Shown: positions 10,178 through 38,138, numbered from the stretch's first letter. The stretch is 64,000 bases of DNA from Bacteroidaceae bacterium (GCA_045613565.1 JAZLBF010000035.1:1373-65372); one strand, 5' to 3'. Made by a program: numbers and translations. The notes: generated from the sequence alone by a model not told the origin.

Positions 10178-11204
10178 AGGCTTGCTCTATCTCAACAATA
10201 TGTTTTTTAAGTTCAGAAATATTTGGCAAGTAATTTACCACTTGCTTTTGTGCGTAGACCAGTTCTTCATACCCTGATAAGTATGTGAAGTTCTGATGAT
10301 AAGGTATCTCCCTATTTTTAATCAAAGCACCAATGACATCTGTTACAGCCCTGTCCATATGTTTTGCCACCGAGAACAACATCATATGGGCAAAGGCACT
10401 CATGTCGCGGTCCATTCCCACCACAAAATCCAGGGTTTCGCGCGAGAAACGGTACACACCCTTGTTTGACGAACCAGCCACGGAGAAGTAATACATATAC
10501 TCGCCTTTCCTTTCCATACACATTTTGTAGGCATTATCCTGCATGTTGTATCCACCATCTTGATGGTCACTCAGATATAGTACATCACATGCATTGCCTC
10601 CAGCAGCCAGATATCCATCTCTGTATCCATCCACAGAGCGCTTGACACTTTTGTCGTGAGGATTGGCTGCTATCACTAGTGCCTTTTGCGCCTTGTCCTC
10701 AGTTTCCTCAAACACACTACTTGCTCCTGCCAAGTAACTAGCAGCATAGGTGCCTACGCAGAATGTGTAGATGCCTTCCACCTCCCGCTTCGTTTCAAAC
10801 ATCAAGACATCCATTCTCTCATCTGCTGGCAGAGTAAGTGAATCCAGCAAATACTCATATTCGCTACCAGAGAAGATGAACAATGCTCTGTTACAGTTGT
10901 CGTCCAACTGATGCTCTCTCCACTCCTCATAGATGTCCTTTGCCTGTTCCTTTTCCTGAGGCATATGAATGGCTAGTGTAAAGCCATATTTGACAGAAGC
11001 CTGTTGAAGTCCAGCCAAAATATTGTCGTTATACCCCTGGTCGCCTACACCTCCAGGAGAAAACACCACCTCCACTTGTTGGGTGAATGGGTCAATAGGT
11101 TCCGCCTTCTCGCATCCTGTTAGTAGAACACAGCAAAGAGAAACAGCGACAAGCAAAAAAGTCCAATATCGTTTCAATTTCGTAGATTTTTGAGCGTTAA
11201 ACAA
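10158..11204 (-). CDS. BMP-family (PnrA/Med-like) substrate-binding-type lipoprotein
   Basis: Lipobox LLTGC. BMP-like motif GGVGDQGYNDNILAGLQ. Overlaps the downstream gene by 20 nt. No ABC permease or ATPase is present in the window. Confidence 0.65.
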   Translation of the reverse strand: MFNAQKSTKLKRYWTFLLVAVSLCCVLLTGCEKAEPIDPFTQQVEVVFSPGGVGDQGYNDNILAGLQQASVKYGFTLAIHMPQEKEQAKDIYEEWREHQLDDNCNRALFIFSGSEYEYLLDSLTLPADERMDVLMFETKREVEGIYTFCVGTYAASYLAGASSVFEETEDKAQKALVIAANPHDKSVKRSVDGYRDGYLAAGGNACDVLYLSDHQDGGYNMQDNAYKMCMERKGEYMYYFSVAGSSNKGVYRFSRETLDFVVGMDRDMSAFAHMMLFSVAKHMDRAVTDVIGALIKNREIPYHQNFTYLSGYEELVYAQKQVVNYLPNISELKKHIVEIEQAYEEANQ

Positions 11205-24260: not shown

Positions 24261-26225
24261 ATGAAACTATCTTCCTGGGGTAAAAAAATATTAACATTTA
24301 TTGTGTTGATACAGGTAAGTTTTGCTTCGTTTGCTGCAGACGACCTCTTTCGTCAGGCTAGAGTGATGCAACACGATGGAAAATATGATGAAGCCATCGA
24401 AGCCTTTAAAAATTACCTTGTACAACCCGTTGCTGAGGAAGCGATGAACGATGATGTGCAAGCTATGTACATTGAGGCACTCTTGCAGATGATGAATACG
24501 TTTCAAAGTAAGGGAGCGCCAGATGCGTGCATTCCTTTCATGCAGGAGGCTTTCAATTCGTCACCTGTGCTCCAGAAGTATTGTCAGAGAGATTACTATT
24601 CTATACTAGGTTATGCTCTCTCTCGCACCGAAGATATGAAGCGAGCAGAGGAGACGATGCTCAAGGCACTGACCATGCCTTTGCATCATCCTACTCCACA
24701 GCGATATTTCCGTGACTATGCATACGCTGCGGCAGTGTTTTATAGCAATCCTGATTATCTGGACGAGGTAATTAACTGGTGCGAAGAGGCAATGAAGGAG
24801 GCGGATTTATGCAAAAATACCTCAGGTAAGCAATGGGTAACTGCTATGCTAGGCTCTTTGTATAAGAGAAAGGGTAGTCTCAACAAGGCTTTGGTTCTCT
24901 TTCAGCAGAGCAAGGAAGAATCCATGTTGAGAAATGATACTTTGGGTGTATTAAATAGCCTTCACTCCTTGATAGACCTCTTCCTCTACTGGGATATACC
25001 CGAATATGCCAATGTATATGCCTCTGAAGCTATACGAGTGGAGCAGAGTCTGAAGACAAACAATCCTATGGTGTCTGCACAAACCTATATCAATAAGGCA
25101 CGAGCCTTATATCAACTAGGTAAGGCTGATTCTACTCTCATCTATGTGGAGGAGGCTCGCAAGCGATGCCAATCTTTGCCCTACAATAGTGGTATGGTAG
25201 ATGTGAACTTGCTACATGGTACTCTGCTGACAGAGCTGGGAGGGGATACTATATATAAAGGTATAGAAGAATTGCAGATAGTAGCCCATCAAGCTACCTC
25301 CATCAATCGTGCAAAGGCTTACCACCAGTTGGCGCAAACATATTTGAAAGGTGCAGATAATCGCAAGGCAGAGGCGATGCTGGATAGTATGTACTATTTG
25401 CTCAATCAAGGAGGATCGCCCACCTTTATTCGTGTTGACTATCAACTCATACTCCGCTACTACTTGAAAAAGAAAAATCAAGCGAAGGCAGAGCAGTATC
25501 TGAGCATGATGCTAGAAGAGCAACAAGCGTTTAAGGAAAAGAAGTTGAACTACAATTTAGTGGAATACATAGTAAATCTACAGACCGAGAAAAAGAGACA
25601 GCAGCTGGAGATTTTGCATCTAGCGTATGCCAATGAGCGTCTCTGGCTCCTCGTTAGCATAGTCTTCTCACTTGTGGCTGTTTTTGTTATCGTATTATTG
25701 TTTGTAAAATACAGGAAGCACTATAAATTTCAGATAAGACAGGCAGACGAAAAACTATCGGCATTGCTTGAGAAGTTGAACCAGTCCAATGCTGAGAAGG
25801 AAATGAGGGCTCAGGAAATCAAGGAATTCTTGAGCGATAGGGACAATCACGAAGAATTCGAAGTACTTACCCCAACGCTACTTCAGACGGAGGGAGAATC
25901 AAAGTTCCGCCAATGTTTTGAGTTGCTTTATCCCCTCTTCCTCCCTCGTTTGCGTGACAGGATACCATCTGTTACCCGTCGTGAGGAGCTGTTGTCCATG
26001 CTCATCGTCTTGAAGCAAGATAACAAGAGGATAGCAGACTTGATGGCCATAGCTCCACGAAGCGTTTTGATGCTTCGTCATCGCTTCCGTCAAAAGATAG
26101 GAATGGCAACAGAGTATTCGCTAGACAATTTTATAGAAGACATTCTGTCCTCTGAAAATGCTCCAACTACCGCAACTGAGTCTGATGTGCCTTCACAAAC
26201 GGAAGAAAAGACCTCGCAGGTGTAA
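24261..26225 (+). CDS. TPR-repeat membrane-anchored regulator with C-terminal helix-turn-helix-like domain
   Basis: Signal peptide, long TPR-like region, one TM helix (LWLLVSIVFSLVAVFVIVLLFV), a coiled coil, and a C-terminal …REELLSMLIVLKQDNKRIADLMAIAPRSVLMLRHRFRQKIG resembling an HTH. Confidence 0.65.
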   Translation: MKLSSWGKKILTFIVLIQVSFASFAADDLFRQARVMQHDGKYDEAIEAFKNYLVQPVAEEAMNDDVQAMYIEALLQMMNTFQSKGAPDACIPFMQEAFNSSPVLQKYCQRDYYSILGYALSRTEDMKRAEETMLKALTMPLHHPTPQRYFRDYAYAAAVFYSNPDYLDEVINWCEEAMKEADLCKNTSGKQWVTAMLGSLYKRKGSLNKALVLFQQSKEESMLRNDTLGVLNSLHSLIDLFLYWDIPEYANVYASEAIRVEQSLKTNNPMVSAQTYINKARALYQLGKADSTLIYVEEARKRCQSLPYNSGMVDVNLLHGTLLTELGGDTIYKGIEELQIVAHQATSINRAKAYHQLAQTYLKGADNRKAEAMLDSMYYLLNQGGSPTFIRVDYQLILRYYLKKKNQAKAEQYLSMMLEEQQAFKEKKLNYNLVEYIVNLQTEKKRQQLEILHLAYANERLWLLVSIVFSLVAVFVIVLLFVKYRKHYKFQIRQADEKLSALLEKLNQSNAEKEMRAQEIKEFLSDRDNHEEFEVLTPTLLQTEGESKFRQCFELLYPLFLPRLRDRIPSVTRREELLSMLIVLKQDNKRIADLMAIAPRSVLMLRHRFRQKIGMATEYSLDNFIEDILSSENAPTTATESDVPSQTEEKTSQV

Positions 26226-26257: not shown

Positions 26258-26735
26258 CAATCCATTTTCATAGACCGTTGAAGTCTGTTTGTAGTATTAC
26301 AAACGCATTTCCGCAGATTGTTGAAGTCCCGTTGTAGTATTATAAACGCATTTCCGCAGACTGTTGAAGTCCCGTTGTAGCTTTACAAACGCATTTCCGC
26401 AGATTGTTGAAGTCTATTTGTAGTATTACAAACGTACTCCGCAGACTGTTAAAGTCCCGTTGTAGTATTACAAACGTACTCCGCAGACTGTTGAAGTCCC
26501 GTTGTAGTATTACAAACGCATTTCCGCAGACTGTTGAAGTCTGTTTGTAGTACTACAAACGCATTTCCGCAGACTGCTGAAGTCTGTTTGTTGTACTACA
26601 AACGCATTTCCGCAGACTGTTGAAGTCTGTTTGTAGCATTACAAACGCATTTCCGCAGACTGTTGAAGTCTGTTTGTAGTATTACAAACGCATTTCCGCA
26701 GACTGTTGAAGTCTATTTGTAGTACTACAAACGTC
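26258..26735. repeat. Tandem array, 43-bp period, about 11 copies (unit AAACGCATTTCCGCAGACTGTTGAAGTCTGTTTGTAGTATTAC)
   Basis: Period measured from AAACGCA at 26301 and 26344. Each unit junction forms the hairpin GTTTGTA-n4-TACAAAC. Two sub-variants are mixed (GTCCCGTTGTAG / GTCTGTTTGTAG; CGCATTTCC / CGTACTCC). Confidence 0.95.
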
Positions 26736-26842
26736 ATCGCAATTAATCAGCAAACAGCATATCACCCTCCCAGAAACTACTTTTTTTGAACTCCATCTTA
26801 ATAATTCACCTTATTATATGTATAAGGAACGGGAAATTTATG

Positions 26843-26850
26843 TATATTTG
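26843..26850 (+). promoter_or_regulatory. Bacteroidota -7 promoter box TATATTTG (TAnnTTTG) within GTATATTTGC
   Basis: The same decamer GTATATTTGC precedes the RND operon (40996) and the paaK-like gene (63605). Confidence 0.5.
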
Positions 26851-26856
26851 CAGTGT

Positions 26857-27181
26857 CTCGCGCCGAAAATGTCCTTTGTGGCATGGGTGGGCGTGGGGCA
26901 AGACATAATAAAGGCGTTTACTACGCTTTGGTTTTGACGGTTAGAAACTTCGCAAACTTCCAATCGTGGTCAAAAACAAAGCAACGTGAATGTCCTTCGT
27001 GGGTATGTTATACGCATTCCCCTATTGTACATTGACAGCCAAGGGCATGTGGTCAATTACAATAGTGGATTATATACACATATCGGCGTGGGGCTTCAGC
27101 GTTGCTCGTTTCGACTACGATGGGCAATGCGAAGGCCTCTAACCGTGAAGCGAGCAACAGTGCAGGGCTTCACGCTTTTTT
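26857..27181 (+). ncRNA. Candidate structured non-coding RNA of ~325 nt, unidentified family
   Basis: Bounded by the promoter box at 26843 and an intrinsic terminator at 27144-27181. No protein-like ORF. Internal helices include TTTTGAC…GTCAAAA, and GTTGCTCG (27101) pairing with CGAGCAAC (27151). Confidence 0.4.
27144..27181 (+). terminator. Intrinsic terminator CGTGAAGC-n15-GCTTCACG followed by CTTTTTT
   Basis: 8-bp GC-rich stem plus T-run, read directly. Confidence 0.65.
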
Positions 27182-27330
27182 GTATCTAATTAGAGATTCG
27201 GAATTAGAGTCGAGCCAATAGAGTAGCATATAAATATAGTTACAGTAAATTGGACTATACTCGTCTATTATTAATTTATGTCTATAGAAATTGAGTAAAC
27301 ATAATTCTAAATAGTAGATTTTCTAATTCA

Positions 27331-28581
27331 ATGAAACGAAGTACACTATTACCATTCTTAGGGTTATTCATTATTAGTTGTAGTAGTGATATTAATTCTA
27401 TTCAGGACCCACATTTTACTGATGAAGGGTATTACATTAATGATACTACCCAGCAAGAACTAATTATTGAACAACCTAGTTCGATTAAATTTTATGTAGA
27501 GGTATCTGGCTCTATGAATGGTTTCTTTAGAGCAAACAAACCCACATATTTCAAAACCGATGTTTGGCAAATACTAAGTTATTACGCACCAATTGCCCCA
27601 GAGATAACCGTTTTGACTAATAGTGGCAATAGCGGAGCCACGTTAGATACAAATAGATTCCAAAACGAAATGAACACAGGAGCCTTTGTTTCACAGGCAT
27701 CTACAAAAGTTCCAGTTATGATTGAAACAATAACATCTAACCTGAATATAGAACAAGGAGAAGTTGCAGTTCTCATATCTGATATGAAGTATAGTCCCGT
27801 CGGTTCTGCTGCACCTGCAGTATTATCCGCACAGTATAGCACAGACATTAGTAGGATTTTAGGAAAATATAATAATGCGGTAAGTATGATTTGCGCAACC
27901 TCAAATTATCTAGCTGCAAATGGAAATGAAATCTGTCAGCGTTCACCATATTATTATGTAATTTTTGGAAACCCTAGTCAAGTAATAAACGTTAGGAATT
28001 GCATTTCAACATTACTTCAAGATAGAGGACACTTTGTTGATAACATAGAAAGCGGTATAAATTACGGTAAGCAAACATATTCATTTGGTTCTCCTATTTT
28101 ATGCGAACAATTAGACTGCGAACCAACATTCATAAACTACGAGGAACCAAATGAAGAATATGGAGATACTTGTACGATAAAACTTAGAATTGATTTGACT
28201 AAGTATCGCTGGATATTAGAAAACGAAAGTATTCTCAGGAATTCGCTAAACATTCAATCTATCTATGGTTCCGATATAGAAATAGGCAAAATATCATATG
28301 AAATAGATACGAAAAAAGACAAGGAACTTAAGCGAGAAGCTATAGCTACTGTAGAAATTAAAGTATATAATTTAGCAATAGACATGGATGTCCTCAAGTG
28401 GAACATTACTCTTCCTGATACAAACTACACTCTCTTCTACGAATTCTTTGATGGAGCAAACGATGAAAATGATGTAACTAAATCTTATTCTGTACAAGAT
28501 TTCATAAAAGGCATGTTCTACGGTGGTATTGTAAATACTCAACCATCAACTAATTATATATTGATTTCTAAAAACTACTAA
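27331..28581 (+). CDS. Lipoprotein with vWA-like N-terminal domain (system gene A)
   Basis: Lipobox FIISC. FYVEVSGSMNGF (27490-27525) resembles the MIDAS beta-strand/DxSGS motif with E in place of D. A later VAVLISDM strand is present. Confidence 0.6.
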   Translation: MKRSTLLPFLGLFIISCSSDINSIQDPHFTDEGYYINDTTQQELIIEQPSSIKFYVEVSGSMNGFFRANKPTYFKTDVWQILSYYAPIAPEITVLTNSGNSGATLDTNRFQNEMNTGAFVSQASTKVPVMIETITSNLNIEQGEVAVLISDMKYSPVGSAAPAVLSAQYSTDISRILGKYNNAVSMICATSNYLAANGNEICQRSPYYYVIFGNPSQVINVRNCISTLLQDRGHFVDNIESGINYGKQTYSFGSPILCEQLDCEPTFINYEEPNEEYGDTCTIKLRIDLTKYRWILENESILRNSLNIQSIYGSDIEIGKISYEIDTKKDKELKREAIATVEIKVYNLAIDMDVLKWNITLPDTNYTLFYEFFDGANDENDVTKSYSVQDFIKGMFYGGIVNTQPSTNYILISKNY

Positions 28582-28584
28582 TAT

Positions 28585-29031
28585 ATGAAAGGTGTTATTA
28601 AACTTTACGAATGGATTGCGGGCAATATGTCCGACTTTACTAAACAGTTTGAAGGAAATGAAAATCTTCAATCACAAGCAAGGAGTTTTTGGAGAAGCCT
28701 TGACAATTACTCTATTGTTAGTGTATTGATATTTGTAATAATAGCAATTGGTGTGGCCACTATGTATTACAAACCTTTTAACAATAAGCCAGGCAGACAT
28801 TACCTACCTAAATATTGGTTTATGTTTTGGTTAGTCTCATTTATTGTTTCATTGTTAGTGACATTTGGTCTTGAATATATTTGTTGTGAACCAAAATTAA
28901 ATGGTGCAACTCTTATCGAGTTTAAGATAGCATTAGCAAATGCTATATATACTGCATTGTTATTCTTATTTATATCAATAATTTGGTGTAATATTTTACC
29001 TACTAACGCTTATAGAATTTTCAAAATATAA
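28585..29031 (+). CDS. Small integral membrane protein, about 3 TM helices (system gene B)
   Basis: Hydrophobic segments IVSVLIFVIIAIGVATMYY, WFMFWLVSFIVSLLVTFGL and ALLFLFISIIWCNIL. 3-nt gap from gene A. Confidence 0.6.
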   Translation: MKGVIKLYEWIAGNMSDFTKQFEGNENLQSQARSFWRSLDNYSIVSVLIFVIIAIGVATMYYKPFNNKPGRHYLPKYWFMFWLVSFIVSLLVTFGLEYICCEPKLNGATLIEFKIALANAIYTALLFLFISIIWCNILPTNAYRIFKI

Positions 29032-29033
29032 TT

Positions 29034-30437
29034 ATGAAAAAGGTTTTTGTCTTTTGCATTGGAGGTACGGGCATTAGAGTAATGAAAAGCATTACTATGC
29101 TAATGGCTGGAGGTATGGATACCAATGGGTATATTGTTGTACCTATTATCCTCGACCCTCACTTGGATTTAGAAGAGAAAAAGAATCTTCATACACTTAT
29201 TGATAGCTATAGAACTATATATGAAAAATCTGTTGAAAACGGTTCTTCTAGGCTAAACCATTTAGAAGGTTTCTTTAATTCTGAAATCCGCACTATTTCA
29301 GACCTAAATAATACCACAAATGACACTCAACAGGTAGTTGGAAGTAACGAAAAATTTAGCCAGTACATTAATTTATCTAATATTGGGGCTAATAATATAA
29401 ATAATCACCTAGTATCTACTTTGTTTTCATCAAAGAACCTGAATAATCCATTGTCTGTAGGCTTTAAAGGAAATCCCAATATGGGAAGCGTAGTCTTGGG
29501 CAATATGATTGAGGGAGCTGATTGGTTTAAATCCTTTAAACAGCATTGCGAACAAGGAGACCGAGTTTTTATAATTAGTTCTATTTTTGGTGGAACTGGC
29601 GCATCTGGTTATCCTCTTTTAGAAAAAAAAATTAGGTTTGCTCAAAATGAACCTGCTGTAAAGAATGCTCTTATGGGAGCTGTTTCTGTCCTTCCATATT
29701 ATGGATTGAAAGACCCAGCGACTACAGGTAGTGACATAGATTCAGCAAATTTCTATACAAAGACTAAAGCCGCATTAGCATATTATCATGGTAATGTAAA
29801 ATCTGATTACTTATATTACATCGGAGAAAAACGCTTGATGCAGGTATATGAGAATGATGAAAGGAAACAGGACGACAAAGCCAATTTCGTTGAGCTTATT
29901 GCTGCTTCGGCTCTATTTGATTTCTTAAAAAGAGAAAAGCCAGATAGACAACAATTCTTAACTAGAGCTATTGAAGAAGACAAAGAATCACTTGACCTAA
30001 ATTCATTAGGCCGAGGATACAAAGATGTTATAAAAAGCGTCGCAGATTTCATGTTGTTACGAGCCATGGTTGATATTCTTCCTAGAGAGAAATATTTCCC
30101 ACTGATAAAAACATACAAGTTTGATGAAAAATTCTATAAAGATTCTGCTTTTGATTCACTTAGTCGATTTTCAAACATATACAACAATTGGTATTCAGAA
30201 TTAGCCACAAATAAGCGTGCATTTGCACCCTTACATCATGATAACTTAAAACAAATGAAAGGGTGGATTAAGGGAATGGTTTTAGATGCTCCTGACGATT
30301 CATATTATTTACTCAAAATGATTCAGGCAAGTAACCATAATTCAGTCGAAAAAGAGCACAACAATACTTTTAGGTTCTTCATGCAATTTGCACATGAAGC
30401 AATTAATTATTATACTAGTAAATTAAATAAACAATAA
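29034..30437 (+). CDS. Tubulin/FtsZ-superfamily-like GTPase (system gene C)
   Basis: N-terminal VFVFCIGGTGIRV (compare FtsZ IKVIGVGGGGGNAV). DRVFIISSIFGGTGASGYPLL (GGTGASG at 29589-29609) is near the tubulin signature [SAG]GGTG[SA]G and FtsZ DMVFITAGMGGGTGTGAAPV. Confidence 0.7.
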   Translation: MKKVFVFCIGGTGIRVMKSITMLMAGGMDTNGYIVVPIILDPHLDLEEKKNLHTLIDSYRTIYEKSVENGSSRLNHLEGFFNSEIRTISDLNNTTNDTQQVVGSNEKFSQYINLSNIGANNINNHLVSTLFSSKNLNNPLSVGFKGNPNMGSVVLGNMIEGADWFKSFKQHCEQGDRVFIISSIFGGTGASGYPLLEKKIRFAQNEPAVKNALMGAVSVLPYYGLKDPATTGSDIDSANFYTKTKAALAYYHGNVKSDYLYYIGEKRLMQVYENDERKQDDKANFVELIAASALFDFLKREKPDRQQFLTRAIEEDKESLDLNSLGRGYKDVIKSVADFMLLRAMVDILPREKYFPLIKTYKFDEKFYKDSAFDSLSRFSNIYNNWYSELATNKRAFAPLHHDNLKQMKGWIKGMVLDAPDDSYYLLKMIQASNHNSVEKEHNNTFRFFMQFAHEAINYYTSKLNKQ

Positions 30438-30438
30438 T

Positions 30439-33400
30439 ATGGGACGAATTGACCTTAATATAGTGGACCGTGGAATACAAGGTACAGATTGGATTGCAGA
30501 GGACATTGGCTTGACCACAGAGCATCTTGATAAGGTTATGGAAATGAAGACAGACAACAGTGGAGCCTTAAATTCATTACCTACACCTTTCGCACGCTTC
30601 TTTGTAGCCAAAGAAGCATTTAGGCGCGCAATGGAAGAGTATCTTGATAACAAAAAAGAAGCAGGTTTCGCTTATAAGCAACTAGTATCTGATATACTAG
30701 ATGTATATGAAATCCTGTTTAATCTCAAGTACCATACTAATAACACATGGAAAAACGGAGAAGGCATAGAACTTCGTGAATGGGATAGCGTAGGAAATCT
30801 CACATATTTAAAACAACAAATGCCAGTATTGTATAATTCGCTTAATGAATATTATAATACTGACATTAAACAAGAGAAATTATATTTTCTTGTCTACACA
30901 GAAGAAGGAAAAGACATTTTATTAGCATGTAGTTCTCCAATTACGGGTTTTGTAACACCGCCAGATTTAGACAAATCAATTGTTAAGAGAAACGGAGCTA
31001 CTGAATACGTGTTTGCAGGAGAACAATACAACGACCTCAACATTCAGCGAAAATCAGGAGGATTTTATTTCCAGGATATAAAAATGTTTGAAGAAAGAGA
31101 CCAAGATTTCAAAAACTATATGTTTAATGTACTTTTTGGCTCTGATGAAGTTAGCGAATCGTTTAAACCCTTAAAAGATTATATTCGAAGTTTTAAGAAT
31201 GACAAAGAAATTCGCAACGACTATAAGATAAAGTTGACTCCAGTAAAAACTGACCAGAATGCCAATTTGATTATCAACCAATTAGCCATTCTTTCTTGTA
31301 ACGAAATTGATATCAACAGTTATTTCAATAACACAATCATAAAAATACCGTATCGAATTTCTCGAAAAAAATTTGAGGCAGTTAAATATAAAAACGATGA
31401 CCCAAATAGAGAATATGATTTCTTATTCCCATTTAAACCTGAAGTACTAAATCTATTCAATAATAATGATATTGACTCCTATATAAATGTCAATAGAACT
31501 TCGGTGACTGTATACCTAAATTATAATGGCAAAGAGTATCATAAAGAATATTCTACTAATCCAACCAATAATCAGGGAAAAATCTATGAACTAAATGTCG
31601 CAAATATAAACTTTAATCTAGGAATATTCCCCAATATATTGTCATATCAAGAATCAGAAAATAATTACTTCAAGATTTTTGTATCTGCTGCGGATGAAGA
31701 CACAGAGGCCCCTAATTTCAGTATAGATAATCTTAGCCTCACTTTTTACAAAAGTAATGGTTCTAGCATTTATCTAATTAAGGAAATTGACCCGACAAAT
31801 GCAGAATTTGGCGTGCTCCCTGCTGTTGTACGCTCAAAACAAGTGAAGAATGGTATAGAATGTGGAACTAAGTTTTACGAATTATTCAATAGCTCCTTTG
31901 ATATTATAAATATCACATTATTTAACCAACATTCTGGTTTCATCATTCCTAAATGGGATAGAAGTATTGCAACCTCAGAACAATTTACATATGCGGTAGA
32001 CCTAGGAACATCTAATACGTTTATCTCACGTTGTAAAATTGGAGATAATAATAAGCCTGAGTTATTCAAGATGGAACAACCAATGGTTAGTTATCTTCAC
32101 GAAATTCCGGAAGACCAACAACTCTCATTGGTTAAACGTATTGAAAATTCTATTTTTGATAGAGCAAAGAATAAAGTTAAAACGGAGTTTGTTCCTGCGA
32201 TAATAGACGGAAAAGATTATAAATTTCCAATTCGCACTGCTCTCTGCGGTATAAAAAACAAATCACAAGCCCCAAAACTGTTTGATAATCACAACATTGC
32301 ATTCTTCTATGAAAAATCAATGTCCAATGATGACCAAGATGTTCATACAGACATTAAGTGGGACAAGAATGACTCTATGTTAAGGGTCTTTATCCGTGAA
32401 CTTTTACTGATTATAAAATGTGATGTTCTACAAAGAAATGGTGATTTAGATAGAACATCTCTAGTTTGGTTTAAACCCTTGAGTTTCATGGGTAATACCA
32501 GAAGTATGTATATTGATATTTGGAACGAAGAAGCCAGAAATATTCTTGCAATAAGTTCTGACAAAATACAATGTTTCTCAGAATCAGAAGCTCCTTATTA
32601 TTACTTTAAGAGGATGGATTACATTAAGGATTCTGATGCGGCTGCTGTCATAGACATAGGTGGCGGCTCAACAGATTTTGTTTACTTCCAAGATAATAAT
32701 CCTATCGTTGCCAATTCTGTTCATTTCGGCTGTGATGTTCTTTGGGGAAATGGGCTTATCGAATTTGAAGATGTACGTCAGAATGGTATATACAAAAAAT
32801 ATGAAAACACAATTAGATTCAGCAAAGAAGGACTACAAGAACTAAATGATTGCTTTATCAACGTGGATAATTCCACAACAAAGGATATAATAAATTTCTG
32901 GTTAAGCAATTCAAATTATTGTGACATCAAGAAAAGTCTAAGCAACGATTTCAAACCTGTATTTGTTTATCACTTAACGTCTATTTTATTCTATATGGCA
33001 AATATGCTAAAAGAATATAGTTATACGGCACCTCGAACAATCGTCTTCAGTGGAAATGGTAGTAGATATATAGATGATTTTATCTGTTCCGACAAGAGAA
33101 TTCTTAAGAAAATAATTGACCAAGTATTTGAGCAGGTATTTGGAGCGGATAATAACGTGCACGTTGTTCTACCAAGTGAACGTAAGGAATCTACATGCTA
33201 TGGAGGATTATACAGAGGTGCTAATGCAGAAGATGTACCAGAAAAGGTATACCAAGGTGATATAAGTTATAGTTATAAGACTGTAGGTGATATTAACAAT
33301 AATTTTGAACATATCAAATCAGTATTAATTTCTAAATATAATGAGCTAGGACGCTTGTATAAAGATATTCTTGAACTACTGAAAACTGAACGTATTATTG

Positions 33401-33582
33401 ATAATACAGATAACACCAGTGTCTATGTTGAGAAATCATTAGAAGACATGGGAGTAGACCTCTCAACCTATTATAAATCACAAATAAAAGAAAAATACCA
33501 AGAAGAAATCCCTCTCTATGAATCGATATTCTTTTTGCCTATTATAAAAAAAGTTTTTGAACTGACAAACCTGAAGCAATGA
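30439..33582 (+). CDS. 1047-aa protein: unknown N-terminal half plus C-terminal actin/Hsp70-fold (ASKHA) ATPase (system gene D)
   Basis: Phosphate-1 motif AVDLGTSNT (31999-32019), phosphate-2 motif VIDIGGGSTD (32653-32676) and adenosine-like motif IVFSGNGSRYI (33046-33066), in the canonical order and spacing. Confidence 0.7.
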   Translation: MGRIDLNIVDRGIQGTDWIAEDIGLTTEHLDKVMEMKTDNSGALNSLPTPFARFFVAKEAFRRAMEEYLDNKKEAGFAYKQLVSDILDVYEILFNLKYHTNNTWKNGEGIELREWDSVGNLTYLKQQMPVLYNSLNEYYNTDIKQEKLYFLVYTEEGKDILLACSSPITGFVTPPDLDKSIVKRNGATEYVFAGEQYNDLNIQRKSGGFYFQDIKMFEERDQDFKNYMFNVLFGSDEVSESFKPLKDYIRSFKNDKEIRNDYKIKLTPVKTDQNANLIINQLAILSCNEIDINSYFNNTIIKIPYRISRKKFEAVKYKNDDPNREYDFLFPFKPEVLNLFNNNDIDSYINVNRTSVTVYLNYNGKEYHKEYSTNPTNNQGKIYELNVANINFNLGIFPNILSYQESENNYFKIFVSAADEDTEAPNFSIDNLSLTFYKSNGSSIYLIKEIDPTNAEFGVLPAVVRSKQVKNGIECGTKFYELFNSSFDIINITLFNQHSGFIIPKWDRSIATSEQFTYAVDLGTSNTFISRCKIGDNNKPELFKMEQPMVSYLHEIPEDQQLSLVKRIENSIFDRAKNKVKTEFVPAIIDGKDYKFPIRTALCGIKNKSQAPKLFDNHNIAFFYEKSMSNDDQDVHTDIKWDKNDSMLRVFIRELLLIIKCDVLQRNGDLDRTSLVWFKPLSFMGNTRSMYIDIWNEEARNILAISSDKIQCFSESEAPYYYFKRMDYIKDSDAAAVIDIGGGSTDFVYFQDNNPIVANSVHFGCDVLWGNGLIEFEDVRQNGIYKKYENTIRFSKEGLQELNDCFINVDNSTTKDIINFWLSNSNYCDIKKSLSNDFKPVFVYHLTSILFYMANMLKEYSYTAPRTIVFSGNGSRYIDDFICSDKRILKKIIDQVFEQVFGADNNVHVVLPSERKESTCYGGLYRGANAEDVPEKVYQGDISYSYKTVGDINNNFEHIKSVLISKYNELGRLYKDILELLKTERIIDNTDNTSVYVEKSLEDMGVDLSTYYKSQIKEKYQEEIPLYESIFFLPIIKKVFELTNLKQ

Positions 33583-35201
33583 GTATAAGCATAATTATTT
33601 CTATCGTTACATCTACGCTATTTATTAGCGCACAATATTACTTTTTTAGAGATACCAGAAAATATAGGATACTATTTCAAAACTTCTTCAAAAAAGTAAA
33701 ACCCTACTCTATTTCTAGACAAAGGGAAGGGAGCATTTATGATGACGAGCCTAATACATGTGATTACGTACAACTAGAACTTGTTGGCACCGAAGAATCT
33801 GATTTAAATAACCTAATCCGAGAAATAAATAATTATATCTTAAAAACAAAAGGAACTACAGATTTCTCTGTAATTCAAAATAAGGTGGAACGCAAACTGA
33901 ACATGAGGTATGACCAGTCTACTGCTAGATTATCCTTCCCTACCTATTTTGGATTATTAGGAACATTCTTTGGAGTATTCATCGGTATTTCATCATTTGT
34001 TTTAGAGTTCGATAGTAGCAATATTACAGACGATGCAATTATTGGACTTCTCGCCGGTGTACTAGTTTCTATGATAACTAGTTTATGTGGTTTGGGGTTT
34101 ACTACATATAATAACTTTCATTCTGGTGGCGCAAGGAAACAAATTGAAGAGGATAAGAATGAGTTTTATGATTTCATCCAAACGGAATTAATGCCTACTA
34201 TTGATGTAAGCATGGTGGCAGCAATCACAAAACTTCATGATACTGTAGACAAATTCGAACCTGCATTTGAACGTGTAATAAATAAATTTCAAACTACTTT
34301 CGACAAGTGCACTGATGCATTTGGTAAAAATTTTGAAAAGAATGTTTCGATTGTCACTGATGCTGTTGATATTATGGGTAGAAACATGGATAAAATCAAC
34401 CATAATATTAATTTACAAGAGAATTTATTGTCGACACTCAAGAGCGGAGAACTTATAGATGGCATGGAAAAATATATCCAAGCAGCAAATCACTTTGGTG
34501 GCATAACGCAATCTCTGAATAAGTTTGAAGAAGCAAGAAGAATGATGTTAGCTGCAACACAAGAAACTATTACAATGCAACAACAATACTCCGAGTCGTT
34601 AAAGATTCCTCGTGAAACAGCAATTAAAATTAATCAAATTCTTGACAGAATAAAAACATTTGAAAATAATATAAATATACTCGGAGAGCAAATTGCACAG
34701 CGAGAAATTTTAGGAAATGAAATTATTAATATCATAAAATCTCAGGTAGATGGTATTGCTAAAAAGGGCAAAATTGCTGACAAATATCTAGGAGTGGCTG
34801 ATGGAAAGCTAGAAGATTTATTTAAAAAGCAATCAGAAGTAATTGATTCTATGAACCATAAATATGGTTCTGCATTAGAAAAACATTTAATTGGATTTGA
34901 AAAGATTTTGGAAGACCACGAAAAGGAAATTATTTCTCGCCGAAATGCCTTCATGGCTGCAATTGAAAACAAGTTATCTATAGAAGATGTCCACCAAGAT
35001 TTCTCCAATCTCAAAAAGTTAAATGACATTAATAAAAATCTATCGGAAATAGCATCTACTTCTATTAAACTTGAAAATTTACATGACGAGATAAAATTAC
35101 TTCAATCTGAATTTACTCAGATAAGAGAGAGTATCGACAATTTAAATAAAGTGAAAGAAGAAGCTAAAAGTAGATGGAATATCTTTGGAGGAGGTAAGTA
35201 A
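33579..35201 (+). CDS. MotA/ExbB/TolQ-like membrane protein with ~340-aa coiled-coil C-terminal tail, a ZorA-like architecture (system gene E)
   Basis: YFGLLGTFFGVFIG (GLLGT at 33951-33965) and GLLAGVLVSMITSLCGLGFTTYNNF match the two conserved TM helices of ExbB/TolQ (…GLLGTV.G… / …T..GL…YN.F). The rest is heptad-rich and charged. Its ATG overlaps the gene D stop (ATGA). Confidence 0.7.
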   Translation: MSISIIISIVTSTLFISAQYYFFRDTRKYRILFQNFFKKVKPYSISRQREGSIYDDEPNTCDYVQLELVGTEESDLNNLIREINNYILKTKGTTDFSVIQNKVERKLNMRYDQSTARLSFPTYFGLLGTFFGVFIGISSFVLEFDSSNITDDAIIGLLAGVLVSMITSLCGLGFTTYNNFHSGGARKQIEEDKNEFYDFIQTELMPTIDVSMVAAITKLHDTVDKFEPAFERVINKFQTTFDKCTDAFGKNFEKNVSIVTDAVDIMGRNMDKINHNINLQENLLSTLKSGELIDGMEKYIQAANHFGGITQSLNKFEEARRMMLAATQETITMQQQYSESLKIPRETAIKINQILDRIKTFENNINILGEQIAQREILGNEIINIIKSQVDGIAKKGKIADKYLGVADGKLEDLFKKQSEVIDSMNHKYGSALEKHLIGFEKILEDHEKEIISRRNAFMAAIENKLSIEDVHQDFSNLKKLNDINKNLSEIASTSIKLENLHDEIKLLQSEFTQIRESIDNLNKVKEEAKSRWNIFGGGK

Positions 35202-35203
35202 CT

Positions 35204-36010
35204 ATGGATGGTAAAAGTAATGGTTCCTTTTGGCCAAGCTACGTAGATATAATGACGACATTATTTGCCATTATGCTCGTTTTATTTGTAGTATCCTTCT
35301 GTCGATTTAAAGTTAAGGAAAAAGAGCAACAAGAAACAATGGATATGCTACAAGCACTTGTTGACGAATATGAAAACATAATCACGGTATATTCAACAGT
35401 GGGTTCTATTGATTCAACTAAATATTTTGGATACGATGAAACATACCTAAAGCACCTGTTTACAGTCGACGTTGAGTATCAAACTCAAGGTTATCGTATT
35501 GCAGACCAATTAAAACTTGACAACATAGATAAGAATGCTGCAAACGAAAAACGCAGTGACATTCTAGCTGCAGGTAATCTCATCAAAGAGACTATACTAA
35601 AACTAGAAAACAATGAATCTATTGATAATAACATTAAGTTTCTTGTAGTTATTGAAGGTCAGGCCTCTAGAGTTAGATTTAATGACGGAGATTGGTACAA
35701 CAACTATACACTATCCTACCTAAGAGCTAGATTTATTAATGATTATTGGAAACAAAACGGAATTAATCTTGACGAAATTCCTCGATGTGAGCTTATAATC
35801 TCTGGAAGTGGTGAAGGTGGAGTACCAAGAATCATCCCTGATGAACATGCGCTGCATATGAAGTATCCAGACCCAATAGACTATAATAAAAATTGGATTG
35901 CAACAGAAGAAAAAAATCAACGTTTTCTTATTCATATAGTACCCGTTATTGGAAACATTGATGTAACAAAAGATAAAATTGAACAAATCAAGTCTCACAC
36001 AAACAAATAA
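35204..36010 (+). CDS. MotB/OmpA-like protein, ZorB-like (system gene F)
   Basis: N-terminal FWPSYVDIMTTLFAIMLVLFVV matches the MotB TM/plug (W..YADFMTAMMAFFL), including the conserved Asp (35246-35248). The C-terminal VVIEGQASRV…NNYTLSYLRA is a divergent OmpA_C-like peptidoglycan-binding pattern. Confidence 0.7.
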   Translation: MDGKSNGSFWPSYVDIMTTLFAIMLVLFVVSFCRFKVKEKEQQETMDMLQALVDEYENIITVYSTVGSIDSTKYFGYDETYLKHLFTVDVEYQTQGYRIADQLKLDNIDKNAANEKRSDILAAGNLIKETILKLENNESIDNNIKFLVVIEGQASRVRFNDGDWYNNYTLSYLRARFINDYWKQNGINLDEIPRCELIISGSGEGGVPRIIPDEHALHMKYPDPIDYNKNWIATEEKNQRFLIHIVPVIGNIDVTKDKIEQIKSHTNK

Positions 36011-36034
36011 TTGTCACATGATTATATTTTGAAA

Positions 36035-36562
36035 ATGGATGACAAATTTAACTTATTTATAGATGATAGTTCGTATATTGATTTTCGTCAGTCAATCATA
36101 GACTCTCCCGTCTTAACATATGACAAAAGTAAACTTCCTTTTGAAAATATCTTTTATCCCCCCAAAAAATATCCTACGCAACTTAAGAATATCGTAAAAT
36201 CATTAATACCAGTACACTATTATTTAAATAGGCATTTGTTTTATCTCAACAAGAAAGGAATCTGTCGAGCACATGGATATTATATTCCTGAAACAAAAAG
36301 GTTTGTAATATGCATGGGAAGTCTTCTATGTACATCGGTGAATAGCGAATATGAAAAAAGTAATTCAGGAAGTTTACGTGCATATCATATACAACATGCA
36401 TGTGAAAAATATCCAAATTATTATGTAGTTAAAAAAAATATAATATGTCTTTCTCCAACATCTGCGGCTTCATATGTTTTAGGCAGAGTAGCTCGATATA
36501 CTGATTGGAAAGATGAAAACGGAGATACTTTAGACAAGTTTTACGCATATAAATTCGTATAG
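36035..36562 (+). CDS. DUF4357-like protein (system gene G)
   Basis: …RAHGYYIPETKRFVICMGSLL…LSPTSAASYVLGRVARYTDWKDENGDTLDKFY resembles the DUF4357 pattern (…V.kGS…SPSaAA..vlGr..NG…WK…G.tL), from memory. The ATG at 36035 is preferred over the TTG at 36011. Confidence 0.5.
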   Translation: MDDKFNLFIDDSSYIDFRQSIIDSPVLTYDKSKLPFENIFYPPKKYPTQLKNIVKSLIPVHYYLNRHLFYLNKKGICRAHGYYIPETKRFVICMGSLLCTSVNSEYEKSNSGSLRAYHIQHACEKYPNYYVVKKNIICLSPTSAASYVLGRVARYTDWKDENGDTLDKFYAYKFV

Positions 36563-36637: not shown

Positions 36638-36673
36638 AAATCTCCGTGAGGGAATAGCCCTTCACGGAGATTT
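36638..36673. terminator. Bidirectional hairpin AAATCTCCGTGA-n12-TCACGGAGATTT between convergent genes
   Basis: 12-bp perfect stem flanked by A-run and T-run, read directly. Confidence 0.7.
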
Positions 36674-36705: not shown

Positions 36706-37944
36706 CTAATTCAGGAGGTAATCAAATACATTCATCATTATAATGCCATTGGGAGTAGTATGCGTTGGTATGTCATCTGTTGTAATAATAATTTTTATAA
36801 ATGAGTCGTCCGTAAGGGTTAGTGAGCGTTGCTCCTGCTTCTGTTTATCTTCGTCAGGTAAAGAATAAGCTGATTGTATATATACTCTTTCACTACCTTT
36901 ATTACAAACGAAATCTATTTCGAGTGTAGCTCTAGTGGTCTTACCTTCATCATCTTTTTGATAGGATGTAACGCATCCCACATCCACTTTATAACCATTA
37001 CCTATCAGATGGTTATATATAATATTCTCCATAATATGGGTAGGCTCCACTTGACGGAAATTCAAAAGTGCATTACGCAACCCAAGGTCAGCAAAATAAT
37101 ATTTATATGGAGTGTCTATATACGTCTTTCCTTTAATGTCATAGCGGACCGCTTTAGCAATAAGGAATGAGTCTATGAAATAGTCTATATAAGTTTTTAC
37201 TGTATTATGGCTTATTTTCACCTTTTTCTCACTAACAAATGTGTTTGCTAGTTTGTTTGGATTAGTTAATGCTCCAATATTTGATGCCAAGAGGCTGAAT
37301 AATTCTTCTAATTCCGCATCATTTTTTACATTATTACGGTTGATTATATCACTTAAATAAGTCTCTTTTAGCAAATCCTGGAGTATTTCTGCTTTTCGCG
37401 CCTTGTCCTTCTCCATGACTACCATTGGTAGACCTCCGTAATAAATGTAATCTCGCCACAATGAAGAGGTTTCCTCATCTGACTTTTCTTTTATTTCCTT
37501 AAACGACAGCGGTTGAAGATGGATCTGAGCTCCGCGTCCTCTGAACTCAGTAACAATATCTGAAGAAAGGAATTTCGCATTACTTCCAGTTATATATACA
37601 TCTAGATTCTCTATACGCAGGAAACCATTAAGCACATCAACAAAACTCTCCAACATCTGGACTTCATCAATCATCACATAATACATCTGTGAATCTTGCT
37701 TTGTCTGATTTTCGACATATTCATATAGAGTTTCTGCACTACGATATTTACGGTGTACAAATGAGTCAAGTTGTAATTCAATGATATGACTAGCATCAAC
37801 ACCATTATCTAAAAGATGTTGCTTATAAAGGTTGAATAGAAGATACGATTTACCAACGCGACGTAACCCAGTAACAATCTTTATCAAATGATTATGCTTG
37901 CTACTTATCAACTTATCAATATAAAGTTGTCTTTCGAATTTCAT
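36706..37944 (-). CDS. AAA-family ATPase with DUF4143-type C-terminal domain
   Basis: N-terminal …KIVTGLRRVGKSYLL (P-loop-like), DEVQ Walker-B-like motif, and overall organisation typical of the widespread Bacteroidota 'ATP-binding protein/DUF4143' family. Confidence 0.75.
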   Translation of the reverse strand: MKFERQLYIDKLISSKHNHLIKIVTGLRRVGKSYLLFNLYKQHLLDNGVDASHIIELQLDSFVHRKYRSAETLYEYVENQTKQDSQMYYVMIDEVQMLESFVDVLNGFLRIENLDVYITGSNAKFLSSDIVTEFRGRGAQIHLQPLSFKEIKEKSDEETSSLWRDYIYYGGLPMVVMEKDKARKAEILQDLLKETYLSDIINRNNVKNDAELEELFSLLASNIGALTNPNKLANTFVSEKKVKISHNTVKTYIDYFIDSFLIAKAVRYDIKGKTYIDTPYKYYFADLGLRNALLNFRQVEPTHIMENIIYNHLIGNGYKVDVGCVTSYQKDDEGKTTRATLEIDFVCNKGSERVYIQSAYSLPDEDKQKQEQRSLTLTDDSFIKIIITTDDIPTHTTPNGIIMMNVFDYLLN

Positions 37945-37947
37945 ATA

Positions 37948-38138
37948 GAGACAATTTTTGTGTATTTACACACTTTTCGTCTACAAAGATAGTTATTTAA
38001 TCATGAAATAGCCTTAACACTGGAGACAATTTCTGTGTATTTACACACTTTTTGTCAATAGAGATAGTTATTTTATCATAAAATAGCCTTAACCCTGGAG
38101 ACAATTTCTGTGTATTTACACACTTTTTGTCAATAGAG
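37948..38138. repeat. 75-bp tandem repeat, about 2.5 copies; each copy carries a minus-strand TATCTTTG promoter box and the palindrome TGTGTAttTACACA
   Basis: Unit starts (GAGACAAT) are at 37948, 38023 and 38098. The array begins 4 nt upstream of the AAA ATPase start codon. Confidence 0.9.

Follow-up and report, generated by a model that had tools for sequence, protein, structure and literature searches.

In a 64,000-nucleotide stretch of DNA from a Bacteroidaceae bacterium (GCA_045613565.1, JAZLBF010000035.1:1373-65372), an intact gene cassette of a large and horizontally mobile type links a tubulin-like protein and a predicted actin-fold protein to a stator pair resembling ZorA and ZorB of the Zorya systems. 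This whole stretch is called the window here, and coordinates are counted from its first letter unless another locus is named. Cassettes of this type are arranged as A-B-C-D-(X)-E-F followed by a variable terminal gene, and the window copy consists of seven genes, A to G (27331–36562). Operons that combine a tubulin-like with a MotA-like gene have been known since 2010; here an actin-fold protein (D) and a short tubulin-like protein (C) are associated with a ZorAB-like stator (E and F). The cassette, a variant of a kind that is so far purely predicted, is abundant, intact, and mechanistically unusual. The best-supported reading, to which we give about even odds, is that the cassette is a mobile, envelope-spanning conflict (defense) system that senses in a Zorya-like way. 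With regard to a defense function, its trigger, the stoichiometry, the ion drive, the protein contacts, and any polymerization, we infer beyond what fold or family membership and genomic association provide.

A constant core with tubulin-like and actin-like proteins

How is the window copy organized? A listing of open reading frames reproduced all seven + strand genes of a sequence-only reading of this DNA, with coordinates in exact agreement, and they are as tightly packed as that reading had described: the intergenic distances from A to G are 3, 2, 1, −4 (an ATGA overlap), 2, and 0 nt. The surrounding DNA is AT-rich, with a guanine-plus-cytosine (GC) content of ~0.33 over 28–38 kb vs. 0.41–0.48 on either flank. 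A hairpin resembling an intrinsic terminator (36638–36673, + strand), with a 15-bp stem containing seven GC pairs and a T-rich tail, closes the operon after G.

How widely is this arrangement conserved? A degenerate-pattern scan found a relative of C encoded in at least 578 species genomes of GTDB. The best 80 genomes carry Bacteroidota labels, except for a few records titled with other taxa, and span the Bacteroidales, Sphingobacteriales, Cytophagales, Flavobacteriales, and Saprospiraceae. Gene content was determined by iterated hidden Markov model searches over 89 fetched loci, of which 68 are informative (i.e., nonredundant and with at least 5 kb of sequence after D). Genes A-B-C-D occur in the same order in essentially all 89 loci; among the 68 informative ones, E is found in 55 and E together with F in 48. 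The shared gene order in 89 loci, together with the presence of a C relative in at least 578 species, excludes a chance arrangement. Synteny of the A-to-G neighborhood, proposed as a check by the sequence-only reading, is therefore real for the core, but a fixed seven-gene set is not what is conserved: A to D form a constant core, E and F are often added to it, and G belongs to a set of terminal modules that can replace one another. Two cyanobacterial plasmids—plasmid Cy782204 of Gloeothece verrucosa PCC 7822 (L090, 6881–16788) and a plasmid of Picosynechococcus sp. PCC 73109 (L091, 7213–16217)—also carry A, a small open reading frame, C, D, and X in this order, with no detectable E or F on either, and NCBI names the Gloeothece C homolog a "tubulin-like domain-containing protein." No homolog of C was found in 50,697 phage records.

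C (29034–30437, + strand) is a cytoplasmic GTPase-like protein of 467 aa that belongs to the tubulin/FtsZ superfamily and, judged at the level of its family, has a tubulin/FtsZ-type fold. The tubulin/FtsZ motif assignment of the sequence-only reading held on checking: loops T1 (GIGGTG), T3 (GFKGNPNxG), and T4 (FGGTGASG) are all invariant in 64 diverse relatives; 55 of the 64 match Pfam Tubulin (PF00091) and 52 match Tubulin_2 (PF13809) at an E-value of 0.01 or less, and the best match of the family profile in the PDB is the archaeal tubulin/FtsZ homolog CetZ (3zid). The family comprises 1,569 clusters at 50% identity, and relatives of C have lengths of 460–520 aa and no coiled-coil extension. 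On its own, the window protein gives a sub-threshold Pfam match to Tubulin only, with no PF13809 match at an E-value of 0.1 or less. Single-sequence searches of the PDB with C, as with E, returned nothing useful, and family profiles were required. When the C family was aligned with hhalign to E. coli FtsZ (a manually entered sequence) and to Deinococcus FtsZl1, only the T3–T4 and T4 blocks, respectively, were matched (E-values 0.04 and 0.02). Tubulin_2 is equated with the FtsZ-like group of Makarova and Koonin (PMC9871819), and scores against it are graded relative to the cut-off of 27 bits: 235 for Deinococcus FtsZl1, 40.8 for the cyanobacterial (Gloeothece) homolog, and 15.7–25.6 for Bacteroidota C proteins. 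These scores place C on a divergent, short (~470 aa) branch beside FtsZl1 and Pfam Tubulin_2.

D (30439–33582, + strand) is a cytoplasmic protein of two parts, and its C-terminal ~530 aa are predicted to form an ATPase domain of the actin/ASKHA fold. The triad of ASKHA motifs that had been read behind ~500 aa of other sequence is invariant among homologs (D521xGT524, D739xGGG743xxD746, and G872xGS875, in sets of 36 and 61). The profile of the D family matches MreB, FtsA, actin, and Ppx in the PDB, and Pfam detects Ppx-GppA in 18 and FtsA in 16 of 36 members, the window protein itself staying below threshold for both. An AlphaFold model (predicted local distance difference test [pLDDT] 86.4) searched with Foldseek gave 674 matches at an E-value of 1e-3 or less, including MreB, ParM, BeeR, actin, and the Hsp70 nucleotide-binding domain (E-values ~1e-8, probability 1.0, target TM scores 0.5–0.58); MreB and ParM rank slightly above Hsp70, with overlapping E-values. 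The model shows a two-lobed actin/ASKHA fold for the C-terminal half. The N-terminal ~510 aa, which are helical and beta-rich, confidently modeled, and marked by an invariant PxPFAR motif, have no structural match. C and D are also found as a natural fusion: the 1,611-aa representative protein P0252 is C-like over residues 1–416 and D-like over residues 497–1477, which argues, as Rosetta-stone evidence, that the two proteins act together.

The first core gene, A (27331–28581, + strand), encodes an exported lipoprotein, as had been proposed: the lipobox cysteine, C17, is near-invariant, and 61 of 79 homologs score as lipoproteins. Further conserved residues are E57, S59, S61, M62, G64, and D151. 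In the AlphaFold model (pLDDT 88.6), an N-terminal alpha/beta domain with a motif resembling a metal ion-dependent adhesion site (ExSGSM...D151) is followed by C-terminal beta-sandwich domains. The beta-alpha-beta order and the ExSGSM...D motif are compatible with the vWA domain that had also been proposed, but three approaches fail to recover it: Pfam assigns vWA to one of 36 members, and weakly (E-value 0.034); PDB profiles give no match; and Foldseek with the full-length model returns weak Ig-like beta-sandwich matches, which we regard as noise, and no vWA. A is the fastest-evolving core component, with 13–20% identity in distant loci vs. 32–40% for C. The second core gene, B (28585–29031, + strand), adjoins A and C in 67 of the 68 informative loci and encodes a small inner-membrane protein with three to four predicted transmembrane helices, in line with the three or so noted previously.

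A ZorAB-like stator pair and its relation to known systems

What kind of stator do E and F resemble? E (33579–35201, + strand) has predicted transmembrane segments at residues 1–19, 124–142, and 149–167, with a periplasmic loop after the first, and a coiled-coil tail of ~370 aa, and is thus built as the MotA-type reading of its sequence had anticipated. A profile of the head alone, with the tail removed, ranks ZorA first (8vvn_C, E-value 7e-7; E. coli ZorA, ~1e-4), ahead of TolQ (0.05) and ExbB (4). F (35204–36010, + strand) has the MotB-type architecture expected of it: one transmembrane helix at residues 14–32, which bears the near-invariant Asp15 within FWPSYVDLMT, followed by a periplasmic OmpA-like peptidoglycan-binding domain. 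Its family profile matches Shewanella type I ZorB over the full length (8vvn_B, 5e-11), E. coli ZorB (8qyd_F, 8e-7), and MotB (6ysf, 2e-3), and the PADLOC ZorB1 model matches it at 9e-8. By these comparisons, E and F are the A- and B-subunits of a ZorA/ZorB-like stator, closest to ZorA/ZorB among solved stators. The similarity is remote and lies below the thresholds of curated models: E reaches 27.9 bits against NCBIfam ZorA_2 (E-value 1e-6), far below the 100-bit cut-off; none of the PADLOC ZorA models matches E; and the Pfam matches of F to OmpA (0.0075) and MotB_plug are sub-threshold.

Two parts of the cassette vary around the stator. In 31 of the 68 informative loci, all among the more distant ones and outside the window's clade, one or two copies of a gene X stand between D and E (e.g., L078, 14863–15945; L042, 15137–18051); its products, of 196–531 aa, have an N-terminal transmembrane segment, a periplasmic segment, a second transmembrane segment, and a cytoplasmic coiled coil. 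The gene after F differs among loci and encodes an Endonuclease_NS protein, a trypsin-like peptidase, a retropepsin-like protease, an SNase, or G (enzyme examples at L051, 17928–18680; L043, 17222–17962; L049, 19251–19829; and L019, 18131–19015). Terminal modules are swapped even between close relatives. All of the terminal enzymes start with a lipoprotein or signal-anchor sequence and have low-complexity linkers; their N-termini indicate that they are exported, and similarity among them is limited to the signal peptide or lipobox.

In the window this slot is occupied by G (36011–36562, + strand, TTG start), a cytoplasmic protein whose DUF4357-like nature was confirmed at an E-value of 1.6e-5, below the Pfam cut-off; it also matches PADLOC PDC-S14 (2e-12). 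G is a single copy of a ~130-aa module ending in DUF4357, and tblastn found relatives with one to three tandem copies and lengths of 183–485 aa. No signal peptide is predicted for G, no relative was found in the PDB, and G has neither a docking domain nor anything else in common with the variable terminal enzymes. In related loci, G is often followed by a gene for an exported Endonuclease_NS (e.g., in a Phocaeicola relative whose G has three modules; L001, 8280–19400), which the window lacks; the window copy is thus a short-G, nuclease-less sub-variant, like those of L012, L014, and L022. The statement that the locus contains no nuclease holds for the window copy but does not extend to its relatives, which encode exported nucleases or proteases in the slot behind F or G.

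How does the cassette relate to operons described before? The sequence-only reading had pointed to a link with FtsZ-like families in operons with OmpA-type proteins, and this link is real. As partners of FtsZl1, Makarova and Koonin (2010) named vWA, GTPase, kinase, and "OmpA family" proteins, and they proposed a role in membrane remodeling (PMC2875224). In their Additional file 5, the operons of Deinococcus radiodurans and Deinococcus deserti encode, in this order, a hypothetical protein of 421–478 aa, a hypothetical protein of ~108 aa, FtsZl1 of 1070 aa, a MotA/TolQ/ExbB protein of 411 aa, and an OmpA family protein of ~200 aa; a pair of MotA-like and OmpA-family partners marks the Deinococcus/Cyanothece type of FtsZl1 operon. 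The text of the paper mentions only "OmpA family" partners and discusses neither a stator nor an actin-like partner. A tubulin–stator association was therefore already tabulated in 2010 and is less unprecedented than had been implied. In order and size, the two leading genes, the gene for the tubulin-like protein, and the two stator genes correspond to those of the cassette; E and the MotA-like protein of D. deserti are clearly homologous (E-value 3e-16, hhalign 95.7%); C shares the T4 signature, the region to which its match with FtsZl1 is confined; and both operon types are uncharacterized and found on mobile DNA (plasmid 2 in D. deserti). Unlike C, a stand-alone protein of 467 aa that in the window scores below the Tubulin_2 gathering cut-off, most FtsZl1 proteins have ~900–1100 aa and a long coiled-coil and helical C-terminal extension. 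Furthermore, C is followed by the ~1050-aa actin-fold D, which has no detectable counterpart in Deinococcus, and none of A, B, D, and F is significantly similar to a protein of the D. deserti locus (F vs. the Deinococcus OmpA protein, E-value 0.027). The window locus is thus a variant of the FtsZl1/MotA/OmpA-type operon in which the tubulin-like protein is short and an actin-fold protein is present in addition. The homology of E to the MotA-like protein of the Deinococcus operon links this type of stator to tubulin-like proteins in two phyla.

The likeness to Zorya is one of architecture. E has the topology of ZorA and its long cytoplasmic tail, and F has the Asp-bearing transmembrane helix and peptidoglycan-binding-type domain of ZorB; in both systems the soluble or terminal partners vary, and both occur on mobile elements among defense genes. 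The Zorya anti-phage systems (Doron 2018) comprise ZorAB plus ZorCD, ZorE, or ZorFG, and their canonical gene orders are zorABCD, zorABE, and zorFABG. In the cassette, E and F are accompanied instead by a lipoprotein (A), a small membrane protein (B), a GTPase of tubulin type (C), and an ATPase with an actin fold (D); the stator genes follow those of their partners rather than leading the operon; and the frequent terminal enzymes are exported, not cytosolic. A PADLOC scan of the seven proteins gave no match to ZorC, ZorD, ZorE, ZorF, or ZorG, as the sequence-only reading had maintained, and neither Pfam nor NCBIfam detected a helicase or HNH domain in them. Because the type-defining partners are absent and the canonical gene orders differ, we rejected assignment to Zorya types I–III.

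A further comparison is offered by the conflict systems built around DO-GTPases and GAP1-N2 in Firmicutes and Actinobacteria, which have tubulin, vWA, and HSP70 components (Kaur, Burroughs, Iyer and Aravind 2020; PMC7159879). They resemble the cassette in theme: predicted conflict systems in which tubulin-family and HSP70/actin-fold proteins come together with vWA-type and membrane-proximal components and with variable modules. They are defined by DO-GTPases and GAP1, whereas the window cassette has a stator. Membership in this group was also rejected: no P-loop GTPase was detected by Pfam or NCBIfam in the seven proteins (the search did not extend to GAP1 itself), and the phyla differ. Full-text literature searches found no paper describing a defense system that combines tubulin, actin, and stator components, and a 2025 survey of MotAB homologs mentions no tubulin-linked clade.

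An upstream RNA-like element and the surroundings of the window copy

Upstream of A, at a distance of 146 nt, is a conserved element that resembles a structured RNA (27082–27185, + strand). Its invariant GGGCAAUGCGA core is flanked by a GCGUGGG arm on the 5' side and a CCCACGC-type arm on the 3' side, after which comes a U-run; every copy has a 5' hairpin around the invariant core and then a 3' terminator-like stem with its U-run. Within the 1.1 kb upstream of A, a 356-nt region (26840–27195) folds with a z-score of −7.9. A stretch of ~100 nt upstream of A is 73–78% identical among cassettes whose proteins have diverged far more (e.g., in L068, although C is only 36% identical), so that the element is better conserved in nucleotides than the coding genes of the cassette. 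Covariance models, run over a search space of 1.59 Mb, recovered 10 copies at an E-value of 1e-5 or less, all on the + (coding) strand and 25–153 nt upstream of A, with none elsewhere in that space at this threshold. Besides the window, these are L033 (607–709), L023 (149–251), L068 (8013–8113), L029 (8073–8173), L016 (4475–4575), L012 (8064–8159), L035 (8085–8183), L018 (8142–8241), and L022 (8024–8121). Two of four weaker matches are further copies upstream of A, and L023 has a weak second copy downstream of its cassette (10870–10968, + strand; 29.8 bits, E-value 2e-4).

In the alignment, which was fitted to the model, the 5' hairpin is 86% paired and has 12 double-change cells, a value reached by one of 500 shuffles; covariation thus gives moderate support to the structure. 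A long-range alternative pairing of the outer arms is possible. No Rfam family matches the element at an E-value of 0.1 or less, and we regard it as a candidate leader or attenuator dedicated to the cassette, or a candidate small RNA.

Upstream of the cassette lies a tandem array of a 43-nt repeat (26272–26733; 10.8 copies, 90% identity), each unit of which has two short palindromes (AGACT..AGTCT and GTTTGTA..TACAAAC); the array is absent from every related locus compared. It is preceded by a gene (24261–26225, + strand) for a protein of 654 aa that has an N-terminal signal, TPR repeats, a single transmembrane segment, and a weak C-terminal match to LuxR/GerE-type helix-turn-helix domains. On the other side, within the 33% GC island of the cassette and converging on it, is a gene (36706–37944, − strand) for an ATPase with AAA_14 (Pfam, 4e-29) and DUF4143 (8e-20) domains that matches the PADLOC candidate defense gene PDC-S01 (1e-114); it is context rather than a demonstrated component of the cassette. 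A 75-nt tandem repeat (37948–38138; 2.5 copies, 93% identity), possibly a duplicated promoter or operator, stands directly upstream of the start of this minus-strand gene, at the right-hand boundary of the low-GC island. Beyond it and on the opposite flank are ordinary chromosomal genes (encoding an M13 peptidase, a BspA-type leucine-rich repeat protein, IlvE, XseA, and an RND efflux pump), and neither integrase nor tra genes were seen in the window flanks; the low-GC island therefore consists of the cassette and the PDC-S01 gene.

Possible function and significance

How might such a cassette work as a conflict system? In the scheme that we propose, F would anchor an ion-driven E/F stator to peptidoglycan through its periplasmic OmpA-like domain, with a stoichiometry that is presumably 5:2 by homology, and E would project its long coiled-coil tail into the cytoplasm. 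A and B together would be the periplasm-facing part of the core. The inner-membrane parts would be B, the stator, and, in some loci, X, and the periplasmic face would comprise A, the part of F that binds peptidoglycan, and the exported hydrolases. On the cytoplasmic side, C and D would act as a switch or polymer driven by nucleotides, and the pair would likely contact the tail of E. By analogy with Zorya (PMC11946911, PMC11890865), perturbation of the envelope would activate the wall-anchored stator, whose tail would relay the signal to the cytoplasmic partners. The terminal slot would provide the output, which in many relatives is an exported nuclease or protease and in the window copy the cytoplasmic DUF4357 protein.

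The case for a conflict system rests on genomic setting and on modularity. The cassette shares its low-GC island with PDC-S01, whose homologs flank it in other loci too. In Phocaeicola vulgatus, relatives 78% identical to the window copy directly follow a conjugative tra operon (TraM, DUF4138, a TraG-type coupling protein, and a lysozyme) and precede an exported nuclease; relatives assigned to Prevotella lie after an integrase and ArdA and before HsdM/HsdS. Among the 149 nearest genes outside the cassettes, matches include AbiEi (two), AbiEii (two), GajA, PDC-S01, PDC-S02, and PDC-S05, CARF-AAA, Schlafen/AlbA_2 (two), and HsdR_N (two), in addition to four integrases, two transposases, and many housekeeping genes. 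Although suggestive of a defense-island setting, this survey was made without a background control. The combination of a constant core with variable terminal enzymes, and the much faster divergence of A than of C, likewise favor a conflict system.

Several observations weigh against this proposal. Many distant loci are flanked by housekeeping genes, and the uncontrolled flank survey demonstrates no enrichment of defense genes. Apart from F (ZorB) and G (PDC-S14/S57), PADLOC gives only marginal matches, to B and E (E-values 0.004–0.09). The export signals of the variable enzymes fit a periplasmic or surface role, which would be unusual for a Zorya-type effector, and the window copy lacks the nuclease gene of its closest relatives. 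E and F are also missing or undetected in about one-quarter of the loci and in the cyanobacterial ones, which argues that the stator is not essential to the A–D core.

Several of these points fit a serious rival, to which we assign a minor share of the probability: the cassette may encode an envelope or membrane-remodeling or cargo-handling machine with no immune role, in which the nucleotide-hydrolyzing proteins and the stator reshape the inner membrane or deploy exported hydrolases (e.g., lipoprotein hydrolases placed onto the surface or into vesicles). Remodeling was the function proposed for the related FtsZl1 operons in 2010 (PMC2875224), and it would sit well with the lipoprotein or signal-anchored nature of A and the variable nucleases and proteases, with the housekeeping neighbors at many chromosomal loci, and with the occurrence of the A–D core without a stator. 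It accounts less readily for the patchy, mobile distribution on integrative and conjugative elements (ICEs), plasmids, and a low-GC island, for neighbors from restriction-modification, Abi, Gabija, and PDC systems, or for the swapping of terminal modules among close relatives, traits that are more typical of conflict systems.

The Phocaeicola loci, with the cassette directly after a tra operon and an exported nuclease behind it, raise another alternative, namely that the cassette serves the conjugative element itself—through entry exclusion, periplasmic degradation of incoming DNA, or support of mating pairs—rather than phage defense. We consider this improbable: there are no tra genes or integrase near the window copy or most other loci, and the cassette is also found in Cytophagales and Flavobacteriales chromosomes and on nonmobilizable cyanobacterial plasmids. 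Finally, that the locus is an unrecognized copy of a known Zorya subtype (I, II, or III) or a GldLM-type gliding/type IX secretion system (T9SS) motor, a match that the sequence-only reading had named as a possible refutation and that was not found, is already refuted by the present tests, barring a future Zorya subtype with tubulin-like and actin-like partners: against the ZorB match of F, the 1e-6 match of E to ZorA_2, and its match to GldL (TIGR03513, E-value 0.005), which lies in the coiled coil only, stand the absence of any ZorC–G match and of a PADLOC ZorA match for E, scores far below cut-off for ZorA_2 (27.9 vs. 100 bits) and GldL (16.8 vs. 68.3 bits), and the OmpA/ZorB-like rather than GldM-like character of F.

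Within the proposal of a conflict system, we tentatively suggest a more specific version, which is a possibility rather than an expectation: the ZorAB-like stator, anchored in the wall, would control a nucleotide-dependent assembly of C and D at the membrane, which would license periplasmic nucleases or proteases, or a DUF4357 factor, against phage or invading DNA, and a dedicated, structured leader RNA would gate expression. If true, this would be the first prokaryotic defense system to rely on both cytoskeletal folds, and one that is common in mobile elements of human-gut Bacteroidales.

What would such a function mean more broadly? The Zorya principle of a wall-anchored ion motor as infection sensor would be extended to entirely different partners, and the orphan FtsZl1-type tubulin relatives, unexplained since 2010, would gain a testable role. 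Tubulin-like and actin-like nucleoside triphosphatases would be seen to act jointly outside cell division and plasmid segregation, and the regulation of the cassette can be approached separately through the conserved RNA-like element upstream of A. Given its abundance—thousands of protein clusters at 90% identity, at least 578 species, and ICEs of gut Phocaeicola, Bacteroides, and Prevotella—the cassette may influence how phages and plasmids circulate in the microbiome of humans and of the rumen.

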